From: Polaribacter sp.
GTDB taxonomy: Bacteria; Bacteroidota; Bacteroidia; Flavobacteriales; Flavobacteriaceae
Assembly (NCBI GenBank): GCA_029238315.1
Contig: JAQWGI010000017.1
Coordinates: 105,698 to 169,697, forward strand
Direction: 5' to 3'
Length of the DNA stretch: 64,000 bases
Shown: positions 40,394-51,730 of the stretch, piece after piece
Layout: every line of letters starts with the position of its first letter
How positions within the stretch are numbered: position 1 is the stretch's first letter
Made by a program: the position numbers and the translations under genes
The notes under the pieces: model-generated
Told to the model about the DNA's origin: nothing
What the model saw: the letters and a program-made list of their open reading frames with translations, nothing else
Database searches by the model: none

Positions 40394-40984
40394 CTAAAAA
40401 TTAAATTTAAAAGAGAGTCCAAATTTAGGAATTTCATAGTTTCTTGTATCGTAACTCATTGTTGGAGTAAAAGAAACGTTGTCGTTTGTGTTGAATTGTA
40501 ATAAATGTGCATTTACACTTGCTTCTACTATTTGTAATACGTAAAAAATAACGGTGCTTAATAAAGCAAGATCTCGATTATTTTTTAATGTTTTTTGTGC
40601 ACTTATTAGCCCGTTTCTAGATATGGTTAAAGAACCATCATTGTTTGTGAACTCGTCTTGCAAGCCTGCTTCACGCATTTTAAAAGCTGTTCTGTAACGG
40701 TCGTATTCATTGTTGTTATCTAGATATAAATAAATACTTGTGCCCATTGCACCCCAAACAATAGGTGCTTTCCAATATTTTTTATTATAAATTTGTCCTC
40801 CGCCAGGTAAAATAGCAGCGTAAAACGCAGCTTTAGATGGCGATAAAGGATTAAAATAGTTGCTATTTGTTTTGATTTTTTCCTTTATTTTAATATCATC
40901 TACTTGGGTAGAATCTTTTTGTGCACTTATTGAAATTGATATAAGTACAGTTAAAAGAAAAAGTATTTTTTTTAGTGATAACAC
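40394..40984 (-). CDS. Exported protein (recalled as DUF5683)
   Basis: Signal peptide, P-x-K-A-A-x-x-A-A-I-L-P-G-x-G-Q-I-Y-N-K-K-Y-W-K motif, C-terminal Phe. Confidence 0.8.
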   Translation of the reverse strand: MLSLKKILFLLTVLISISISAQKDSTQVDDIKIKEKIKTNSNYFNPLSPSKAAFYAAILPGGGQIYNKKYWKAPIVWGAMGTSIYLYLDNNNEYDRYRTAFKMREAGLQDEFTNNDGSLTISRNGLISAQKTLKNNRDLALLSTVIFYVLQIVEASVNAHLLQFNTNDNVSFTPTMSYDTRNYEIPKFGLSFKFNF

Positions 40985-41871
40985 TATTTAAGTAAGTTTT
41001 TTATGCGGTGAAATTCTTCTTCAGATTTAAAAGAAATTGATATTTTTCCTTTTCCTTTAGCGTTAGTATTCACTTCTACTTTACTGCCAAAGAATAAATT
41101 TAACTCTGTTATAGATTCTTTTACAAAATTTGGAATTTGTTTCGTCTGTTTAACACTTGTATTTCCGGCTTTTAAATTTTTAACCAATTCTTCTGTCTGT
41201 CTAACAGATAATTTGTCTTTAACAATTTTGGTGTAAATATTTAGTTGATCTTCTGATGAATCTACATTTATTAATGCGCGTCCGTGTCCCATAGAAATAA
41301 ATCCATCTCGCATTCCGGTCTGAATAATTGGATCTAATTTTAACAAACGCAAATAGTTTGTAACGGTAGACCTTTTTTTACCAACTCTAACACTTAATTG
41401 TTCTTGTGTTAGCTGAATTTCTTCAATTAACCGTTGATAAGATAACGCTACTTCAATTGGGTCTAAATTCTTACGTTGAATGTTTTCTACCAGAGCCATT
41501 TCTAGCATTTCTTGGTCATTTGCTATTCGAATGTATGCTGGTACTGTTCCGTTACCAACTAATTTAGAAGCTCTATATCTTCGCTCACCAGAAACTAACT
41601 GAAATTTGTTTCCTTCTAGTTTCCGAACTGTAATAGGTTGTATAACTCCAAGCTCTTTGATAGAATTAGCTAATTCTGTTAACGCATCTTCATCAAAATA
41701 GGTTCTTGGTTGAAAAGGATTTACTTCAATGTTTTGTAATTCAATCTCAACAATATTTCCAACTAATTTATCCGCATTTTTATCTGAAGCGAAATTGATG
41801 TCAGCAGAACTTTCTTTTAGTAATGCAGACAGCCCTCTTCCTAAGGCTTGCTTTTTTGTTGCTTTTGCCAT
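40984..41871 (-). CDS. parB: Chromosome partition protein ParB
   Basis: NPFQPR, SGERRYRA, ALVENIQR, HTH. Confidence 0.95.
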   Translation of the reverse strand: MAKATKKQALGRGLSALLKESSADINFASDKNADKLVGNIVEIELQNIEVNPFQPRTYFDEDALTELANSIKELGVIQPITVRKLEGNKFQLVSGERRYRASKLVGNGTVPAYIRIANDQEMLEMALVENIQRKNLDPIEVALSYQRLIEEIQLTQEQLSVRVGKKRSTVTNYLRLLKLDPIIQTGMRDGFISMGHGRALINVDSSEDQLNIYTKIVKDKLSVRQTEELVKNLKAGNTSVKQTKQIPNFVKESITELNLFFGSKVEVNTNAKGKGKISISFKSEEEFHRIKNLLK

Positions 41872-42635
41872 TATACGTTTTTCTTAATAATTTCGTTTGC
41901 CAAACTTAAATAATTCACAGCACCTTTGCTTGTAGCATCATAAGCAATAATGCTTTCTCCATAACTTGGTGCCTCTCCTAATCTTGTGTTTCTTCTAATA
42001 ATTGTATCAAAAACCATACTGCTAAAGTGTTTTCTTACTTCTTCAACTACCTGGTTTGATAAACGCAAACGAGCATCAAACATCGTTAGTAAAAGTCCTT
42101 CAATATCTAAGTTAGGATTGTGTATTTTTTGAACACTTTTAATGGTGTTTAACAATTTACCTAGACCTTCTAATGCAAAATATTCACATTGAATTGGAAT
42201 GATTACAGCATTTGCTGCAACTAAAGAATTTAGGGTAATTAGGCCTAAAGACGGTGCGCAATCAATTAAAATATAATCGTAGGTGTTTGTTATTTTTTTT
42301 AAGGCTTTTTGCAACATATATTCTCGTTGCTCTTTGTCTACTAATTCAATTTCAATGGCAACCAGATCAATGTGTGCAGGTATGATATCTACATTTGGAG
42401 ACGTAGTTTTTTGAATGGCTTCATTTATTGATGCCGTATGCTCTAAAACTTGGTACGTTCCAATTTCTACATTTTCAACATCTATGCCTAATCCAGAAGA
42501 TGCATTTGCTTGGGGGTCTGCATCAATAAGGAGTATTTTTTTTTCTAGAACACCTAAAGAAGCTGCTAGATTTACGGCTGTAGTTGTTTTACCAACACCA
42601 CCTTTTTGATTTGCAATTGCAATAATTTTCCCCAT
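41871..42635 (-). CDS. parA: Chromosome partition ATPase ParA/Soj
   Basis: NQKGGVGKTT, DADPQAN, DCAPSLG, QCEYFALEG. Confidence 0.95.
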   Translation of the reverse strand: MGKIIAIANQKGGVGKTTTAVNLAASLGVLEKKILLIDADPQANASSGLGIDVENVEIGTYQVLEHTASINEAIQKTTSPNVDIIPAHIDLVAIEIELVDKEQREYMLQKALKKITNTYDYILIDCAPSLGLITLNSLVAANAVIIPIQCEYFALEGLGKLLNTIKSVQKIHNPNLDIEGLLLTMFDARLRLSNQVVEEVRKHFSSMVFDTIIRRNTRLGEAPSYGESIIAYDATSKGAVNYLSLANEIIKKNV

Positions 42636-45072: not shown

Positions 45073-46347
45073 ATGAAAGAAGATTTTCTTCATTATTTAT
45101 GGAAGCATCAATTGTTTTCTGCATCAGATTTACAAACAACAGAATTTAATGCAATTGAAATTGTTTTTCCTGGGATTCATAATTTTAATGCAGGACCAGA
45201 TTTTTTAAACGCTAAAATTAAAGTTGACAACATTTTATGGATTGGACATGTTGAGATTCATATTCATTCTTCTGATTGGTATGTCCATCAACATGAGAAG
45301 GATTCTAATTATAATTCTGTTATTCTACATGTAGTTTGGGAAGACGATGTGGCAGTTTTTGGAATGAATAACTTGCCTTTGCCAACGTTAAATATTGCTA
45401 AGTTAGTTGCAGATGATTTGTTGTTGAATTATAAAAGTCTGTATTCTAAAGAACAGCGTTGGATTCCTTGTGAAAAGTCAATAAAAACCATTGATTCCTT
45501 TGTGCTTGACAATTGGAAAGAACGTTTGTTTTTTGAGCGTTTAGAAGAAAAATCAATCTTAATTAATCAATTGTTGAGCAATTCTAATAATAATTACGAA
45601 GCGGTTTTGTTTAAGTTACTTGCCAAGAATTTTGGTTTGAAAACAAATGCAGAAGCCTTTTTAAATTTTGCAAATTCAATTGATTTTTCGATTGTTAGAA
45701 AGCTGCAAAACGATGTTTTTAAATTACAGGCATTATTTTTTGGACAAGCTGGTTTTTTGGAAGAAACATCTAAAGAAAAATTTGTAAATAAATTAAAAAC
45801 TGAATATAAGTACTTAAAGCACAAATTTAATTTAAAACCAATTCATAATGGACAGTTTCAGTTTTTTAGAATGCGACCAACAAATTTTCCAACAATACGA
45901 ATTGCACAATTGGTCTTTTTATATTACAAGCAACAAAATTTGTTTTCAAAATTGATAGCAACTTCTGATTTAAAAACAATGTATCAACTGTTTTCAGTTG
46001 AATTAAATGATTTTTGGAAAATACATTTTACGTTTAAAACAGTGTCAAAAAAAACATCCAAAAAACTCACAAAATCCTTTGTAGATTTATTACTCATAAA
46101 TACAATTTTTCCATTAAAATTTAACTATCTAAAAAGTAGAGGTGTGGTAGATGAAACAGCGTTTTTGTCATTAATTCAAGAATTAAAACCAGAAAAAAAT
46201 TCGATTATTGATAGGTTTAGTAAGTTGAAAATAAGTTCTAAAAATGCTTTTGAAACACAGGCTTTATTACAGCTTAAAAATAATTATTGCGCAAAGAAAC
46301 GTTGTTTACAATGCGCAATAGGTAATGTTATTTTAAATAGAGCTTAG
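45073..46347 (+). CDS. Conserved Bacteroidota protein (recalled as DUF2851)
   Basis: MKEDFLHYLW, GPDF...W.G.VEIH, LHVVW, RMRPTNFPTIR, C-terminal C-x4-C-x2-C. Confidence 0.8.
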   Translation: MKEDFLHYLWKHQLFSASDLQTTEFNAIEIVFPGIHNFNAGPDFLNAKIKVDNILWIGHVEIHIHSSDWYVHQHEKDSNYNSVILHVVWEDDVAVFGMNNLPLPTLNIAKLVADDLLLNYKSLYSKEQRWIPCEKSIKTIDSFVLDNWKERLFFERLEEKSILINQLLSNSNNNYEAVLFKLLAKNFGLKTNAEAFLNFANSIDFSIVRKLQNDVFKLQALFFGQAGFLEETSKEKFVNKLKTEYKYLKHKFNLKPIHNGQFQFFRMRPTNFPTIRIAQLVFLYYKQQNLFSKLIATSDLKTMYQLFSVELNDFWKIHFTFKTVSKKTSKKLTKSFVDLLLINTIFPLKFNYLKSRGVVDETAFLSLIQELKPEKNSIIDRFSKLKISSKNAFETQALLQLKNNYCAKKRCLQCAIGNVILNRA

Positions 46348-48797
46348 TACAGACTCTTGTATTTTGTAGGGTTCGATTCATGCATCATTTCGTAAACCTT
46401 TTCAAAAACATCTTCAGAAGAAGGTTTAGAGAAGTAATCTCCATCTGTACCGTAAGCTGGTCTATGCGCTTTTGCTGTTAATGTTTGCGGTTTGCTATCT
46501 AAATATTGATATCCATTTTGGTTTTCTACAATTTCTTGTAATAAATATGCAGAAGCTCCGCCAGGTACATCTTCATCAACTACTAATAATCTATTTGTTT
46601 TTGCAATCGACTTTACCGTATCATGATTTACATCAAAAGGCAATAAACTTTGCGCATCAATAATTTCTACATTAATGTCAACTTGAGCTAATTCTTTAGC
46701 TGCTTCTTCAATTATTCTTAAAGTTGATCCGTAAGAAATTATAGTAATGTCTGTTCCTTCTTTAATCGTTTCTATTTCACCAATAGGAGTTTTAAAGGCT
46801 CCTAAATTGGTTGGTAATTCTTCTTTTAAACGATAGCCATTTAAACACTCTATAACCAAAGCTGGATCATCTCCTTCTAATAAAGTATTGTAAAACCCAG
46901 CTGCTTTTGTCATGTTTCTTGGAACCAAAACGTGAATTCCGCGAATGTTATTTATGATTCCGCCCATAGGAGATCCAGAATGCCAAATTCCTTCCAATCT
47001 GTGACCACGAGTTCTGATAATTAACGGCGCTTTTTGTTTACCAAAAGTTCGGTAACGCAACGTTGCTAAATCATCACTCATAATTTGTAAAGCGTACAAT
47101 AAATAATCTAAATATTGTATTTCTGCAATAGGTCTTAATCCACGCATTGCCATACCAATTCCTTGTCCTAAGATAGTTGCTTCTCTAATACCTGTATCAG
47201 AAACTCTCAGTTCTCCAAATTTTTCTTGCAAACCTTCTAAACCTTGATTTACATCACCAATATGACCAGCATCTTCACCAAAAATTAAAACTTCTGGGTG
47301 TTTTGCTAAAATGGCGTCAAAATTATCACGCATAATTACACGCGCGTCAACTAAGTTTTGTTTAGCTGCATAGGTTGGTTTTTCTTCGATAACGTTTTCT
47401 GTAGCTAGTGCCGTTTCACTTAATAAGTGTGATGAGTATTTTACCGCAGCATTATCAATTGAAGATTTTATAAAGTTCTGCAATTCAATTTTCTCAGCAA
47501 ATTCTTCATCTTTCAAGTAGCGTAATGTTTTACGGCAAGCGACTAAAATATCTTTTCTGATAGGTTCTGCAATTGCAGTTAAATCGTTTTTGTATTTTGT
47601 AATAAAAGTACCATTACTACTTTTATTAGCAATTTTTTCTAGTAGAGCTTCGGCAGTTGCAACCTCTGTTTTTATTTCATTTGTAAAAGCATTCCAAGCA
47701 TTTCTTTTTGCTAAAGAAACTTCTTTTTTTGCTTCTTTTTCAATGGCTTTTAATTCTTCTTCAGAATCGATAAATTTTAGCGTGTTTCCGTCTTCATCTT
47801 CAAGTTGAAATTCTAAAATCCATTTTCGCATTTGGTTTAAACAATCAAACTCTTGCTCCCATTGTAAACGTTCTGGAGATTTATATCTTTCGTGAGATCC
47901 AGAAGTAGAGTGCCCTTGCGGTTGTGTTAATTCTTTTACGTGAATTAAAACCGGAATGTGTTTTGTTCTCGCAATTTCTGATGCTTTATTGTAAACATCA
48001 ATTAATTGCACATAATCCCACCCGTTTACAACAAAAATCTCATATCCGTTTGTATCGTTTTCTTTTTGAAACCCTTTTAAAATTTCAGAGATACTTTCTT
48101 TTGTTGTTTGATGTTTTGCATGAACCGAAATTCCATATTCATCATCCCAAACATTCATCACCATTGGTACTTGTAAAACACCAGCAGCATTTATAGTTTC
48201 AAAAAATAGACCTTCAGAAGTACTTGCGTTACCAATTGTTCCCCAAGCAACTTCGTTTCCTTCATTAGAAAAATTTGTAAATTTTTCTAAACCTTTTACA
48301 TTTCTATAAATTTTAGAAGCTTGTGCTAAGCCTAATAGTCTCGGCATTTGACCAGCAGTTGGAGAAATATCTGCAGAAGAGTTTTTCTGTTTGGTTAAGT
48401 TTTTCCAATCTCCATTTTCATCTAAAGAATGCGTAGCAAAATGTCCGCCCATTTGACGACCAGCAGACATTGGTTCTACATTGATATCTGTGTGAGCGTA
48501 TAAGCCTGCAAAAAATTGTTGTGCAGTTAGTTGCTCAATTGCCATCATAAATGTTTGATCTCTGTAATAACCAGATCTAAAGTCTCCATTTTTAAAAGCT
48601 TTTGCCATTGCTAATTGCGGCACTTCTTTTCCGTCTCCGAAAATTCCGAATTTAGCTTTTCCTGTTAAAACTTCTCTACGTCCTAATAAGCTACATTCTC
48701 TACTAACACGTGCGATTCTATAATCGTTTAAAACTTCTTTTTTAAAATCGTTAAAAGATAAATTAGTAGAATTTGAAACGGCTGTATCTTGAGACAT
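46344..48797 (-). CDS. Fused E1 alpha/beta 2-oxoacid dehydrogenase (probably branched-chain)
   Basis: YYRDQ, GRQMGGHF, GHSTSG, GEDAG, IREATILG, PIAEIQY, HRLEGIWHS. Start moved to ATG 48797 because 48824 lies in the promoter. Confidence 0.9.
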   Translation of the reverse strand: MSQDTAVSNSTNLSFNDFKKEVLNDYRIARVSRECSLLGRREVLTGKAKFGIFGDGKEVPQLAMAKAFKNGDFRSGYYRDQTFMMAIEQLTAQQFFAGLYAHTDINVEPMSAGRQMGGHFATHSLDENGDWKNLTKQKNSSADISPTAGQMPRLLGLAQASKIYRNVKGLEKFTNFSNEGNEVAWGTIGNASTSEGLFFETINAAGVLQVPMVMNVWDDEYGISVHAKHQTTKESISEILKGFQKENDTNGYEIFVVNGWDYVQLIDVYNKASEIARTKHIPVLIHVKELTQPQGHSTSGSHERYKSPERLQWEQEFDCLNQMRKWILEFQLEDEDGNTLKFIDSEEELKAIEKEAKKEVSLAKRNAWNAFTNEIKTEVATAEALLEKIANKSSNGTFITKYKNDLTAIAEPIRKDILVACRKTLRYLKDEEFAEKIELQNFIKSSIDNAAVKYSSHLLSETALATENVIEEKPTYAAKQNLVDARVIMRDNFDAILAKHPEVLIFGEDAGHIGDVNQGLEGLQEKFGELRVSDTGIREATILGQGIGMAMRGLRPIAEIQYLDYLLYALQIMSDDLATLRYRTFGKQKAPLIIRTRGHRLEGIWHSGSPMGGIINNIRGIHVLVPRNMTKAAGFYNTLLEGDDPALVIECLNGYRLKEELPTNLGAFKTPIGEIETIKEGTDITIISYGSTLRIIEEAAKELAQVDINVEIIDAQSLLPFDVNHDTVKSIAKTNRLLVVDEDVPGGASAYLLQEIVENQNGYQYLDSKPQTLTAKAHRPAYGTDGDYFSKPSSEDVFEKVYEMMHESNPTKYKSLY

Positions 48798-48821
48798 AAT
48801 GATATAATTTTTAGACTTTTG

Positions 48822-48829
48822 CAAATGTA
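48822..48829 (-). promoter_or_regulatory. -7 element of the E1 gene
   Basis: TACATTTG on the minus strand. Confidence 0.6.
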
Positions 48830-48931: not shown

Positions 48932-51730
48932 TTAAAGAAAGCCTCTTCTAAAAAAGTTATAAATTGTAGATGGTCTTGCAGTTAATACAAAGCGAATTTT
49001 AGAGAGATAGGCTTCTTGGGTAACTTCCCATCCATTATTAGAATACATTGGAAAGTAGATTTCTAAAATATTGTGAATAAAATTAAATCGGATTCCGTTT
49101 TCATAAGCAAAAAATACATCTTGCTCTTTGTTTTTTAGAAAAGCCACATCGTTATAATATTCTACCCAATTCCAAAGACCTATGCTAGAATTAAAAGACA
49201 TCATGTATTGATTAGCGAATCTAGTTGGTAGCACAGATTTGAATCCACCATCCTCAATAATTACTTGTTGGCTAAAAATCCCTGAGCTTTCAGATCTTCC
49301 AAAGTAGTTTTCTTCAAATAAATAATCTGAAGATCTGTCTAATCCAAAACTAAAATAATCTCCGCTAGTTTTATTGTTTAAAAAGAATCCGCCAAAAACA
49401 CGAAAATCTAACTGTCTGTTTTTTGCAGTAAGTTTTCGGTATCTAATATCCGTAGAAAACTTTGTGAAATTTGAAGAAATATCTGTGTTTACTTCATAAG
49501 AAATTCCTTCAATAATATTTGGTTTAGAATTGATATATTTTATATTTAAAACATTGTAAATGTCTTGTTCATTTGATATTGTTTCTTTTGCAGTTTCTTT
49601 ATGAATATTTACATATTTTACGGTTAAAGAATTACCACCTACGTCTCGGAGGCTTTTTCTTTTGAAAATAGTAGAAATATAGGGAGCAAAAACACCATAA
49701 GATAGTTCTGGTGCGTAATGAAAATTACTGGCAGAAACCCCATAGACAATATGTTGTATTTTTGAATTTTCAAAATACTGATTGTACATGATCGATGCTA
49801 AGCCAGTTAAAGTTTTACTTTTTGTAGCATAAGAAGGGACTAGTTTAAAAGAAAGATTTCTAGACAGGATGGGTTTATTGTGTAGTTTTAAGCCTAGGGT
49901 AACTCCATCATAAAAATTGTAACCTAATTCTGGTTGATAAAATAATTGATTGTAATATGGATCTTCGATGTCTTTAATTAGTTTTAATTGAATTGGTTTA
50001 TCTAGAACGCTTCTTTCAATGTTTTTCCAGTTATCCAGGGTGTTGTATTCTGGATATAATTGCTCGTAATTCAACGCTATTTTGTCAAAGTTGCCTTTTG
50101 CAATGGTAATTGTATTTGTAGAGTCAATTCCTGTAAGCCACTTTTTGAATCTAATTTTTTTGTTTTTTACACCATATAATGCAACTGGTGCGGTGATATT
50201 TCTTTTATTTTTAATGCTTATTTTTAAAGAGTCTGAGGTACTTTCTATTTTTTTAATTGTGTAATCAATTTTTTTATTGGTACGAATGTAATCTCCAAAA
50301 AACCACGTTAAATCTTTGTCTGTTTTTGATGAAATAATTTTATTAAAAACCTTGCTTGAACTTATTTTTAATTGATTGGTTGAATAAAATTCAGTAAAAC
50401 TTTCTTTGATAATAGAGTCGCCTAAATACCCTTTCAAATATTGTAAACCAAGACCAGCTTTGTATTTGTTGGCAATTTTTCTGTTGAAGTTAGATAAAGA
50501 ATCGAGACTTGTAGTTAGTGCTTGATCTAAAAATTTTCGTGCGCCAAACTGATATACAAATGGATATTTATCATTAAAATCTAACTTAGAAAAATTAAAA
50601 CTTCTTACTCCCCAAACTTTAGAAATAGTTCCTAATAATTTTACATCAGCATAGAATTCTTTTACATATTCAATCATTAAAAAGGTTTGAATCCCGTCTA
50701 TCAACCAATAATCTTTTCGTCTGTTTAAAAGCAAAGTGTTTTCTAAATATTTTCTAGTAATCGCTTTAAAATAAGTAATATCTCTGTCGAATACATCAGA
50801 AAATGGACTTAAAAATTTAGGCAATTGATTGAGGCCGTAAATTGGATTTTTGTTTTGAGAAACTTCATCCAGCAATAATTCTTTATGTGGATAAGGACCT
50901 AAATACTTTTCGATAAAAAAGAGTTCTCTGTTTAAAATATCTGAAGTTAATTTTTTGTTGATTCCTTTTGGTAAAACATCTGTAATTACATCAATTTTAT
51001 TTGTTTTGTAAGTTGTGTAATTGTTTATTTTGTTGATGCTTAAAATTATATCTGTTTTGTTGTTTCCAGATAAATTGTAAATAGAATTTTCTTTTTCCTG
51101 CGTTAAATTACTAGTTAGAAAATAATTATTTGGAACTTCAACTTTGATATTATAATTGGTAGGATTGATAAATAAATCGTCAGTATTTAAATTACTCATT
51201 AATTGCCATTCGTTTGTGAAAACAGCTGGAGTTAAATACCAATATCGCAGATGATAACCAGTTGCTGTTTTTCCATAACTTGTGAATTGAGAACTTGGAA
51301 TTTTAACTGTAAACGATGCTTTTATAACAATGGAATCCGCAGGTTTTAAAACCTTATTTAATTCGATTTTAAGAATGTCTTCTGCATCTTTTTGTGAAGT
51401 AAATTGAATACCTTCATAATCAACAGAAAGGTTTAAAATCTTACTAAAACCGCGTTCACTATCTTTTGCAAAATAGAGTGATTTGTCATAATCACCAATC
51501 AATCTTTTCGTTAAAGGTGTATTTTTATCTTTAAAACTATTTGCCCAATTATGAAGATATATTTCTTTCAAAGATTGGTTGGAGTTGTTGAAGTAAACTA
51601 TTTCTTGCTGAATTTTTAAAACATCATTTTTTTCATCTAAAACAGCATTGATTTTCATCGAATTTGTTTGGGCACAAATACGAGATAAGAATAATACTGG
51701 GAGGCAAAAAAATATTAACTTCAGTTTCAA
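48932..51730 (-). CDS. M1-aminopeptidase-like exported protein lacking the Zn motif, with a probable C-terminal beta-barrel
   Basis: Signal peptide, M1-like N-domain (YLHNWAN, WYLTP, LGPYP), WLIDGIQTF in place of WLNEG, then amphipathic beta-strands. Confidence 0.7.
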   Translation of the reverse strand: MKLKLIFFCLPVLFLSRICAQTNSMKINAVLDEKNDVLKIQQEIVYFNNSNQSLKEIYLHNWANSFKDKNTPLTKRLIGDYDKSLYFAKDSERGFSKILNLSVDYEGIQFTSQKDAEDILKIELNKVLKPADSIVIKASFTVKIPSSQFTSYGKTATGYHLRYWYLTPAVFTNEWQLMSNLNTDDLFINPTNYNIKVEVPNNYFLTSNLTQEKENSIYNLSGNNKTDIILSINKINNYTTYKTNKIDVITDVLPKGINKKLTSDILNRELFFIEKYLGPYPHKELLLDEVSQNKNPIYGLNQLPKFLSPFSDVFDRDITYFKAITRKYLENTLLLNRRKDYWLIDGIQTFLMIEYVKEFYADVKLLGTISKVWGVRSFNFSKLDFNDKYPFVYQFGARKFLDQALTTSLDSLSNFNRKIANKYKAGLGLQYLKGYLGDSIIKESFTEFYSTNQLKISSSKVFNKIISSKTDKDLTWFFGDYIRTNKKIDYTIKKIESTSDSLKISIKNKRNITAPVALYGVKNKKIRFKKWLTGIDSTNTITIAKGNFDKIALNYEQLYPEYNTLDNWKNIERSVLDKPIQLKLIKDIEDPYYNQLFYQPELGYNFYDGVTLGLKLHNKPILSRNLSFKLVPSYATKSKTLTGLASIMYNQYFENSKIQHIVYGVSASNFHYAPELSYGVFAPYISTIFKRKSLRDVGGNSLTVKYVNIHKETAKETISNEQDIYNVLNIKYINSKPNIIEGISYEVNTDISSNFTKFSTDIRYRKLTAKNRQLDFRVFGGFFLNNKTSGDYFSFGLDRSSDYLFEENYFGRSESSGIFSQQVIIEDGGFKSVLPTRFANQYMMSFNSSIGLWNWVEYYNDVAFLKNKEQDVFFAYENGIRFNFIHNILEIYFPMYSNNGWEVTQEAYLSKIRFVLTARPSTIYNFFRRGFL

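Follow-up and report, generated by a model that had tools for sequence, protein, structure and literature searches.

A catalytically disabled M1 aminopeptidase scaffold fused to a predicted Omp85-like barrel in Polaribacter and its relatives

The stretch of DNA considered here (the window) comprises 64,000 nucleotides of a Polaribacter sp. genome (GCA_029238315.1, contig JAQWGI010000017.1, positions 105,698 to 169,697). The gene of interest lies on its minus strand at 48932..51730, and all coordinates given below for parts of that gene are likewise on the minus strand. From a TTG start it encodes 932 amino acids (aa) followed by a stop codon: a signal peptide, a module with the predicted fold of an M1 zinc aminopeptidase, and a C-terminal domain predicted to form a beta-barrel. 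Open reading frame (ORF) calling and translation agree that the frame is intact, as an initial annotation of the stretch had claimed, and the short strings quoted in that annotation are where it placed them: GPYP at aa 278, KNPIYG at 294, KAITR at 322-326, WLIDG at 342-346, PELGYNFYDGVTLG at 600, and GFL at the C-terminus. The leader (aa 1-20, LKLKLIFFCLPVLFLSRICA, 51671..51730) is of the signal peptidase I (SPase I) type, with Gln at +1 and no lipobox; an 'A/G-Q' pair after the hydrophobic stretch is kept across orthologues, and both the TTG start and the leader (LKLKL-hydrophobic-RICA/Q) are kept in the stop-to-stop frames of close orthologues. The database gene call (P0002, 908 aa, 100% identical) begins at an internal Met25, 24 codons downstream of the TTG, and drops the leader (51659-51730). 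As the leader is conserved in orthologues, where the position of Met25 is occupied by Ile, the 908-aa call is probably wrong and an SPase-I signal peptide is probably present.

Direct searches with the protein gave no family: Pfam, NCBIfam and PDB sequences returned no match, the gathering score of PF01433 (Peptidase_M1) was not reached, and a 30-sequence profile of close relatives found nothing in PDB. The link to M1 is therefore drawn from relatives and from the predicted fold. Twenty of the 30 close relatives match PF01433 weakly (best E = 2.4e-5; 24.5 bits for the best relative against a cut-off of 27.7), over profile positions 82-218, a segment that begins just past HExxH. An exhaustive phmmer search yielded 2334 relatives; those that bear HExxH exceed the gathering score, with 42-78 bits. 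NCBI and UniRef name the relatives 'aminopeptidase' or 'M1 family metallopeptidase', the automatic labeling that the initial annotation had foreseen.

The fold was examined with AlphaFold2 (AF2) and Foldseek, as that annotation had proposed, and both the M1 fold and the C-terminal barrel were recovered. The full-length model has a mean predicted local distance difference test score (pLDDT) of 72, rising to about 90 over aa 22-290. Residues ~22-560 match IRAP, ERAP1/2 and the puromycin-sensitive aminopeptidase (E about 1e-14, probability 1.00, ~600 columns), an alignment that corresponds to M1 domains I-III; the three-domain M1 fold is thus present as predicted by both programs. Domain I, the N-terminal beta domain, extends over aa 22-255 (50966..51667, pLDDT about 90); domain II, the thermolysin-like 'catalytic' domain in which the weak PF01433 matches of the relatives fall, over aa 256-485 (50276..50965); domain III, a small beta-sandwich with strands between 490 and 554 (pLDDT 80-86), over aa 486-560 (50051..50275). 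A conserved linker, aa 561-593 (49952..50050), with a PE.N..N motif, a short strand at 580-584 in the models and an Asn (N567) nearly invariant in both clades described below, leads into the barrel.

What domain II has lost is seen by comparison with full-length relatives at 25-30% identity. In a 123-sequence alignment, used for column-by-column comparison of motifs, these carry 'GDYPY..AGGGMEYP..HEVGHNW..WMDEG(I/L)N', aligned exactly to 'GPYPH..KNPIYGL..FKAITRKY..WLIDG' of the Polaribacter protein; the motif alignment proposed at the outset was correct at every residue. Where active orthologues have the GxMEN-type exopeptidase motif, as AGGGMEY, the protein has KNPIYGL (aa 294-300, 50831..50851), nearly invariant within the family; the columns of HExxH (HEVGH in active orthologues) hold KAITR (aa 322-326, 50753..50767); those of WMDEG hold WLIDG (aa 342-346, 50693..50707). 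That is, the two His ligands have become K322 and R326, the catalytic Glu has become A323, and the third zinc ligand, a Glu, has become D345; neither the HExxH-x18-E zinc site nor the GxMEN-type motif is present at the aligned columns. The spacing of the old site survives, with 18 residues between R326 and D345. The transition-state Tyr of active relatives (IVY-x-K) aligns with K422; Y423 lies one column off and is Y, F, S, A or G across the dead clade, which leaves retention of the catalytic Tyr doubtful. The degenerate site is near-invariant within the family, and K322 is invariant among 121 close homologues; in the wider dead clade, position 326 is R, S, K, Y, Q or H and position 345 is D, N, E, S, K or G. 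A further segment of domain II, aa 364-417 (FNFSKLDFNDKYPFVYQFGARKFLDQALTT..NFNRK, 50510-50671), is highly conserved in both clades, with Q403 invariant and N416 nearly so, yet its pLDDT in the model is <50; contact with the barrel or a partner is one possible role.

The C-terminal domain, aa 594-932 (48935..49951), was modeled separately as aa 571-932 from a 55-sequence alignment that spans loci of both clades. The AF2 model, with strands assigned by DSSP, contains 15 long antiparallel strands and a short sixteenth (pLDDT 86; predicted template modeling score, pTM, 0.83), which bears out, as far as a model can, the earlier claim of a C-terminal barrel, here of ~340 aa. The 50 best Foldseek matches in PDB all belong to the Omp85 superfamily (TamA, Sam50, BamA, FhaC, CdiB; E 9e-7 to 1e-4, probability 1.00, TM-score about 0.5); no 16-strand porin, BcsC or PgaA is among them. 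A 16-stranded C-terminal barrel as in Omp85/TpsB proteins is accordingly predicted, and no more than predicted. Where L6 lies in Omp85, between strands 11 and 12, the model has a loop of 55 aa (aa 787-841, 49208..49372; FSFGLDR..DYLFE..GRSE..SQQ..GGFKS) that is the best-conserved segment of the family in both clades: D802, R812, Q822 and G828 are invariant or nearly so. The invariant Arg (R812) sits in 'GRSE'; the loop has no RG(F/Y). Three loops exceed all others in length (12, 55 and 15 aa), and each of them joins strand 2k-1 to strand 2k; the remaining turns are of 2-9 aa. Read as is usual for outer-membrane proteins, this pattern suggests that the M1 module faces the periplasm and that the 55-aa loop occupies the L6 position. 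Alignments, AF2 and Foldseek together thus agree on the architecture put forward initially, in which a membrane-type beta-barrel carries an M1 scaffold disabled for catalysis, in so far as models can establish it. The same note had left the choice between a peptide channel and a part in outer-membrane biogenesis or secretion; as the best structural matches are all of the Omp85 superfamily, the predicted fold favors the latter.

The distribution of the gene was followed with a barrel profile through 301 genomes across the phylum. All 51 hits fall within the class of the window, Bacteroidia, exactly one copy per genome, and none of the 23 genomes sampled from the window's family, the Flavobacteriaceae, lacks the gene (9 of 9 have it in a further sampling). 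It appears to be a single-copy, vertically inherited protein of Bacteroidia. The zinc site is degenerate in the window's family (f1) and in four others of the same order (f2, f52, f53 and f62); it is intact in f51, f54 and f58 of that order and in nearly all other families of the class. The sequence of the degenerate site is conserved within each family and unrelated between families. On a maximum-likelihood tree built from the barrel alone, leaving out the columns of the M1 site, which matches the family groupings, loss of the zinc site requires four state changes, at least three of them on well-supported branches, with the full-length protein retained. The lineages of loss are a clade of 25 rows that unites f1, f2, f52 and f53 (SH-like approximate likelihood ratio support, SH-aLRT, 95), the family f62, and the single genomes G158 and G130. 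On this comparison of sequences, the ancestral module would have been a complete zinc aminopeptidase, as it is in most other families, and the loss that led to the window's gene is old, since four families share it. Two relatives in family f6 carry in-frame stops (TAG and TGA): G066 (C45:59429-60601), which is split into pieces of 383 and 376 aa, and G130 (C31:36523-37590), the latter also without the zinc site. Either gene may be a pseudogene, or the stops may stem from errors of assembly.

Selection has acted on the disabled module as on the rest. Against eight close orthologues, the ratio of nonsynonymous to synonymous divergence (dN/dS; values approximate, as dS is about 1-2) comes to 0.09-0.16 for domain I, 0.06-0.12 for the disabled 'catalytic' domain, 0.04-0.10 for domain III and 0.05-0.09 for the barrel. 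The initial annotation had held that retention of HExxH in orthologues would point to recent decay. Distant orthologues do keep HExxH; recency does not follow, as the loss is common to four families and dN/dS in the dead module is 0.06-0.12. For the same reasons the gene is, to judge from these comparisons, an old and maintained pseudoenzyme: the fold is kept, the catalytic residues are gone, selection is purifying, and active homologues exist.

Those homologues (P0236, for example, called 'M1 family metallopeptidase') resemble the window's protein in full-length architecture, in having one copy per genome and in a barrel that is homologous between the clades (22-29% identity over ~340 aa), and differ in retaining GGMEYP, HE[VI]GHNW and WMDEG and in exceeding the PF01433 cut-off. 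Column conservation is reversed between the two: in the HExxH-bearing clade the M1 domains are the most conserved part (0.58-0.63 versus 0.42), whereas in the clade of the window it is the barrel (0.47 versus 0.37-0.39). The barrel can also occur by itself. In genus g25 of family f8, G282 has a 439-aa ORF of barrel only (C1:226000-230300), which opens with its own hydrophobic leader (MKPLLIVINILVLSIYSFVYG, then Q), and G078 has a 438-aa frame at the matching place (C3:403000-407300); no remnant of an M1 module was found within about 3 kb upstream of either, and the sister genus of g25 has the full-length active form. Across the class, then, one orthologous barrel occurs with an active M1 module, with a dead one or with none, and the barrel is, on these alignments, the constant part.

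The neighborhood of the gene offers little guidance. Upstream lie a LOG-family gene and uvrA; directly downstream is a fused E1 alpha/beta 2-oxoacid dehydrogenase component of 826 aa (E1_dh + Transket_pyr + Transketolase_C; 46344-48824, minus strand), then DUF2851, nitroreductase and PepD genes. The E1 gene is found near 73 of 80 loci from close relatives and near 10 of 80 metagenome loci of the HExxH clade; its recurrence beside the active form fits positional orthology of the two forms. LOG, UvrA and the E1 dehydrogenase were considered as functional partners and set aside, being merely syntenic in close relatives. The 80 loci of the active clade also revealed no strongly conserved partner. 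A gene for a TlpA-like thioredoxin-fold protein (CxxC) lies upstream on the same strand in 10 of those 80 and appears operonic in about six; in four metagenome loci (L086, L088, L089, L139) the gap is 6-29 bp. It occurs at one of the 80 close loci and is absent from the window. Three conventional, barrel-less M1 genes are present in the same genome (C27:303284-304858, C27:301005-302264 and C21:13317-14501), so that the cell does not go without M1 activity; an ordinary BamA and a second Omp85 gene are encoded elsewhere in it as well. At some distance in the window is a ParA/ParB partition pair (40984-42635, minus strand), and the cumulative GC skew turns between about 38 kb and 56 kb.

One way to understand these observations, to which we give a probability of about one half, is that the protein is an outer-membrane protein with the Omp85-like barrel as its core, and that the M1 module is a periplasmic, non-catalytic binder of polypeptides or of a partner. 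That is, the Sec/SPase-I leader would direct the protein out of the cytoplasm; the barrel would sit in the outer membrane as the functional core; the M1 module would occupy the place that POTRA domains have in BamA and TamA, hanging on the periplasmic face of the barrel; there it would hold polypeptides or a partner without cutting them, as eukaryotic M1 pseudoenzymes do; and by doing so it would feed or regulate the activity of the barrel, which would be envelope protein handling of the Omp85 kind. We infer the location, the orientation, the binding role and the function of the barrel from the architecture and from the history of the gene.

Precedent exists for each half of this proposal. TAF2 is an M1 pseudoenzyme of eukaryotes. 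Tma108 is another, and binds nascent chains (PMC11266112); here too, by analogy, the M1 scaffold may have been kept for binding and not for cleavage. The eukaryotic examples are cytosolic or nuclear and soluble, whereas the protein of the window appears to be secreted, bacterial and fused to a barrel. From the M1 zinc aminopeptidases proper (PepN, ERAP1/2, IRAP, puromycin-sensitive aminopeptidase; PF01433), with which it shares the predicted fold of domains I-III and, through the active orthologues, the motif columns, it differs in lacking HExxH, the third Glu ligand and the GxMEN-type motif, in having K422 in the Tyr column, and in that the barrel replaces helical domain IV. The likeness to Omp85/TpsB proteins (BamA, TamA/TamL, Sam50, FhaC) lies in the predicted 16 strands, a long conserved loop placed, like L6, between strands 11 and 12, and a soluble N-terminal module before strand 1. 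Several Omp85 proteins have non-POTRA N-termini (PlpD/FplA 'type Vd', 'Metallo', WD40, noNterm; PMC4104836), and these resemble it in placing another N-terminal module on a 16-strand barrel; the barrel-only form of g25 resembles 'noNterm'.

Several points count against the proposal, most of them concerning the barrel. PF01103 does not match it; hmmsearch of the barrel against PDB gave no match; when 55 barrel domains were compared with Pfam at E <= 10, no family recurred and none covered the barrel. Profile-profile alignment with Omp85 by hhalign gave a probability of <=1.4%, in a comparison where the pair taken as positive control, BamA and TamL-like barrels, also scored weakly (58%, E = 1e-4); in its greedy form the alignment is co-linear along the whole barrel and sets the long loop opposite the RGY region of BamA, though not significantly. 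TM-scores to Omp85 structures are only about 0.5, and strands 7-10 are weakly amphipathic. The canonical (V/I)RG(F/Y) motif is absent, as are POTRA domains, the N-terminal 560 aa being M1 domains I-III. In this lineage the loci compared revealed no conserved gene partner; no experimental literature on such a protein was found; and it is only by analogy that the dead module is taken to bind.

A bolder form of the proposal holds that the family is an unrecognized Bacteroidia branch of Omp85-like machines, in which M1 stands in for the POTRA arm, the barrel is the core that cannot be spared, and the module has repeatedly switched from cutting polypeptide to merely holding it; the whole would handle envelope proteins or lipoproteins, as a missing route of this phylum, either accessory or parallel. 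That the barrel cannot be spared would follow from its presence, as a single copy, in all sampled Flavobacteriaceae and from its occurrence by itself elsewhere. We regard this extension as tentative, possible but less probable than the simpler statement. The 2014 census of Omp85/TpsB proteins by Heinz & Lithgow recognizes patatin, 'Metallo' (PF00149), WD40, lipoprotein and noNterm subfamilies, and an M1 module is not among its ten (PMC4104836); with its barrel outside PF01103, the protein would have escaped that census. A subunit of Flavobacterium's complex for the assembly of beta-barrels (BAM) was also considered and found no support: no peptidase-like subunit of that complex is described (PMC12611786). 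Recent papers on Bacteroidota BAM and TamL do not mention such a protein, and full-text searches of the literature yielded nothing relevant on a fusion of M1 with Omp85 or with a barrel. On the sequence comparisons made, a dead M1 module on an Omp85-like barrel seems to be a design undescribed in the literature searched.

A second perspective supposes that the barrel exports its own N-terminus, in the manner of type Vd proteins such as PlpD and FplA, and so puts the M1 module on the cell surface: active forms would trim extracellular peptides, and dead forms would bind peptide or protein, for capture before uptake or for adhesion. The order, an N-terminal enzyme and then a 16-strand Omp85-type barrel, is that of patatin-Omp85 (PMC4104836); scavenging of peptides at the surface would suit marine Flavobacteriaceae; and with barrel-less M1 peptidases elsewhere in the genome, this copy could be specialized for the surface. 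The resemblance is incomplete. In the type Vd order, a POTRA domain stands between the passenger enzyme and the 16-strand barrel, and PlpD keeps it; here there is none between module and barrel, nor is the module a live enzyme. The prediction contains no long linker that could run through the barrel, and a three-domain module of ~570 aa would have to cross it unfolded; the loop-length pattern of the model puts the N-terminus in the periplasm; the TlpA-like gene 6-29 bp upstream in some active-clade loci belongs to a class that acts in the periplasm, and hints at work there; and the stand-alone barrel has no cargo to export. Self-export is therefore doubtful, although it is the strongest of the competing accounts.

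It might also be supposed that the barrel is not related to Omp85 and reached its 16 strands by convergence, as a channel for peptides, say, or for some other solute; the M1 module would then gate it from the periplasm or capture its substrate. The lack of sequence-level homology to Omp85, the TM-scores of about 0.5 and the lack of a Pfam model speak for such an origin. Convergence would have to account as well for 50 best matches drawn from the Omp85 superfamily, with not one 16-strand porin, BcsC or PgaA; for a single long, highly conserved loop exactly between strands 11 and 12, as in Omp85 L6; and for a greedy profile alignment that is co-linear over the whole barrel. We consider it unlikely, somewhat more so than self-export.

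A third account keeps the module an enzyme, with a non-canonical site built from K294/N295/Y298, K322, R338, D340, D345 and Y423/K424. The replaced segments are almost invariant within the family, which resembles new function more than drift; D345 could bind metal; and Y423 adjoins the column of the catalytic Tyr. Against this, Lys and Arg stand where the His ligands were and Ala where the general-base Glu was, positions 326 and 345 are not conserved across the wider dead clade, and the sequences of the site are unrelated between families. A cryptic activity is accordingly quite improbable. That the gene is a relic, a decaying former peptidase without function, hardly deserves belief: the catalytic residues are lost, and in-frame stops occur in two relatives of another family (G066, G130), but the frame is open over its full 932 aa, the family has a single copy in each genome sampled, dN/dS is 0.04-0.16 in every domain and four families share the loss, which rules out recent decay at the level of sequence.

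The outer-membrane, periplasmic-facing pseudoenzyme that we favor would combine, if the models are right, two known kinds of protein, M1 pseudoenzymes and Omp85-type barrels with non-POTRA N-termini, in a form that is widespread and mis-annotated. If so, hundreds of genomes hold a gene whose name, 'aminopeptidase', cannot be right, and re-annotation is due. The repertoire of Omp85-type barrels would gain an architecture that the 2014 census lacks (PMC4104836), and would gain it in a phylum where the machinery of outer-membrane biogenesis has lately turned out to be unusual (PMC12611786, PMC12578637). As the family is universal in sampled Flavobacteriaceae, an orthologue should exist in the genetically tractable Flavobacterium johnsoniae, which would make the question testable. 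A further implication is that nature may already have done an experiment: active, dead and absent M1 modules on one orthologous barrel would make it possible to ask directly what the module contributes.

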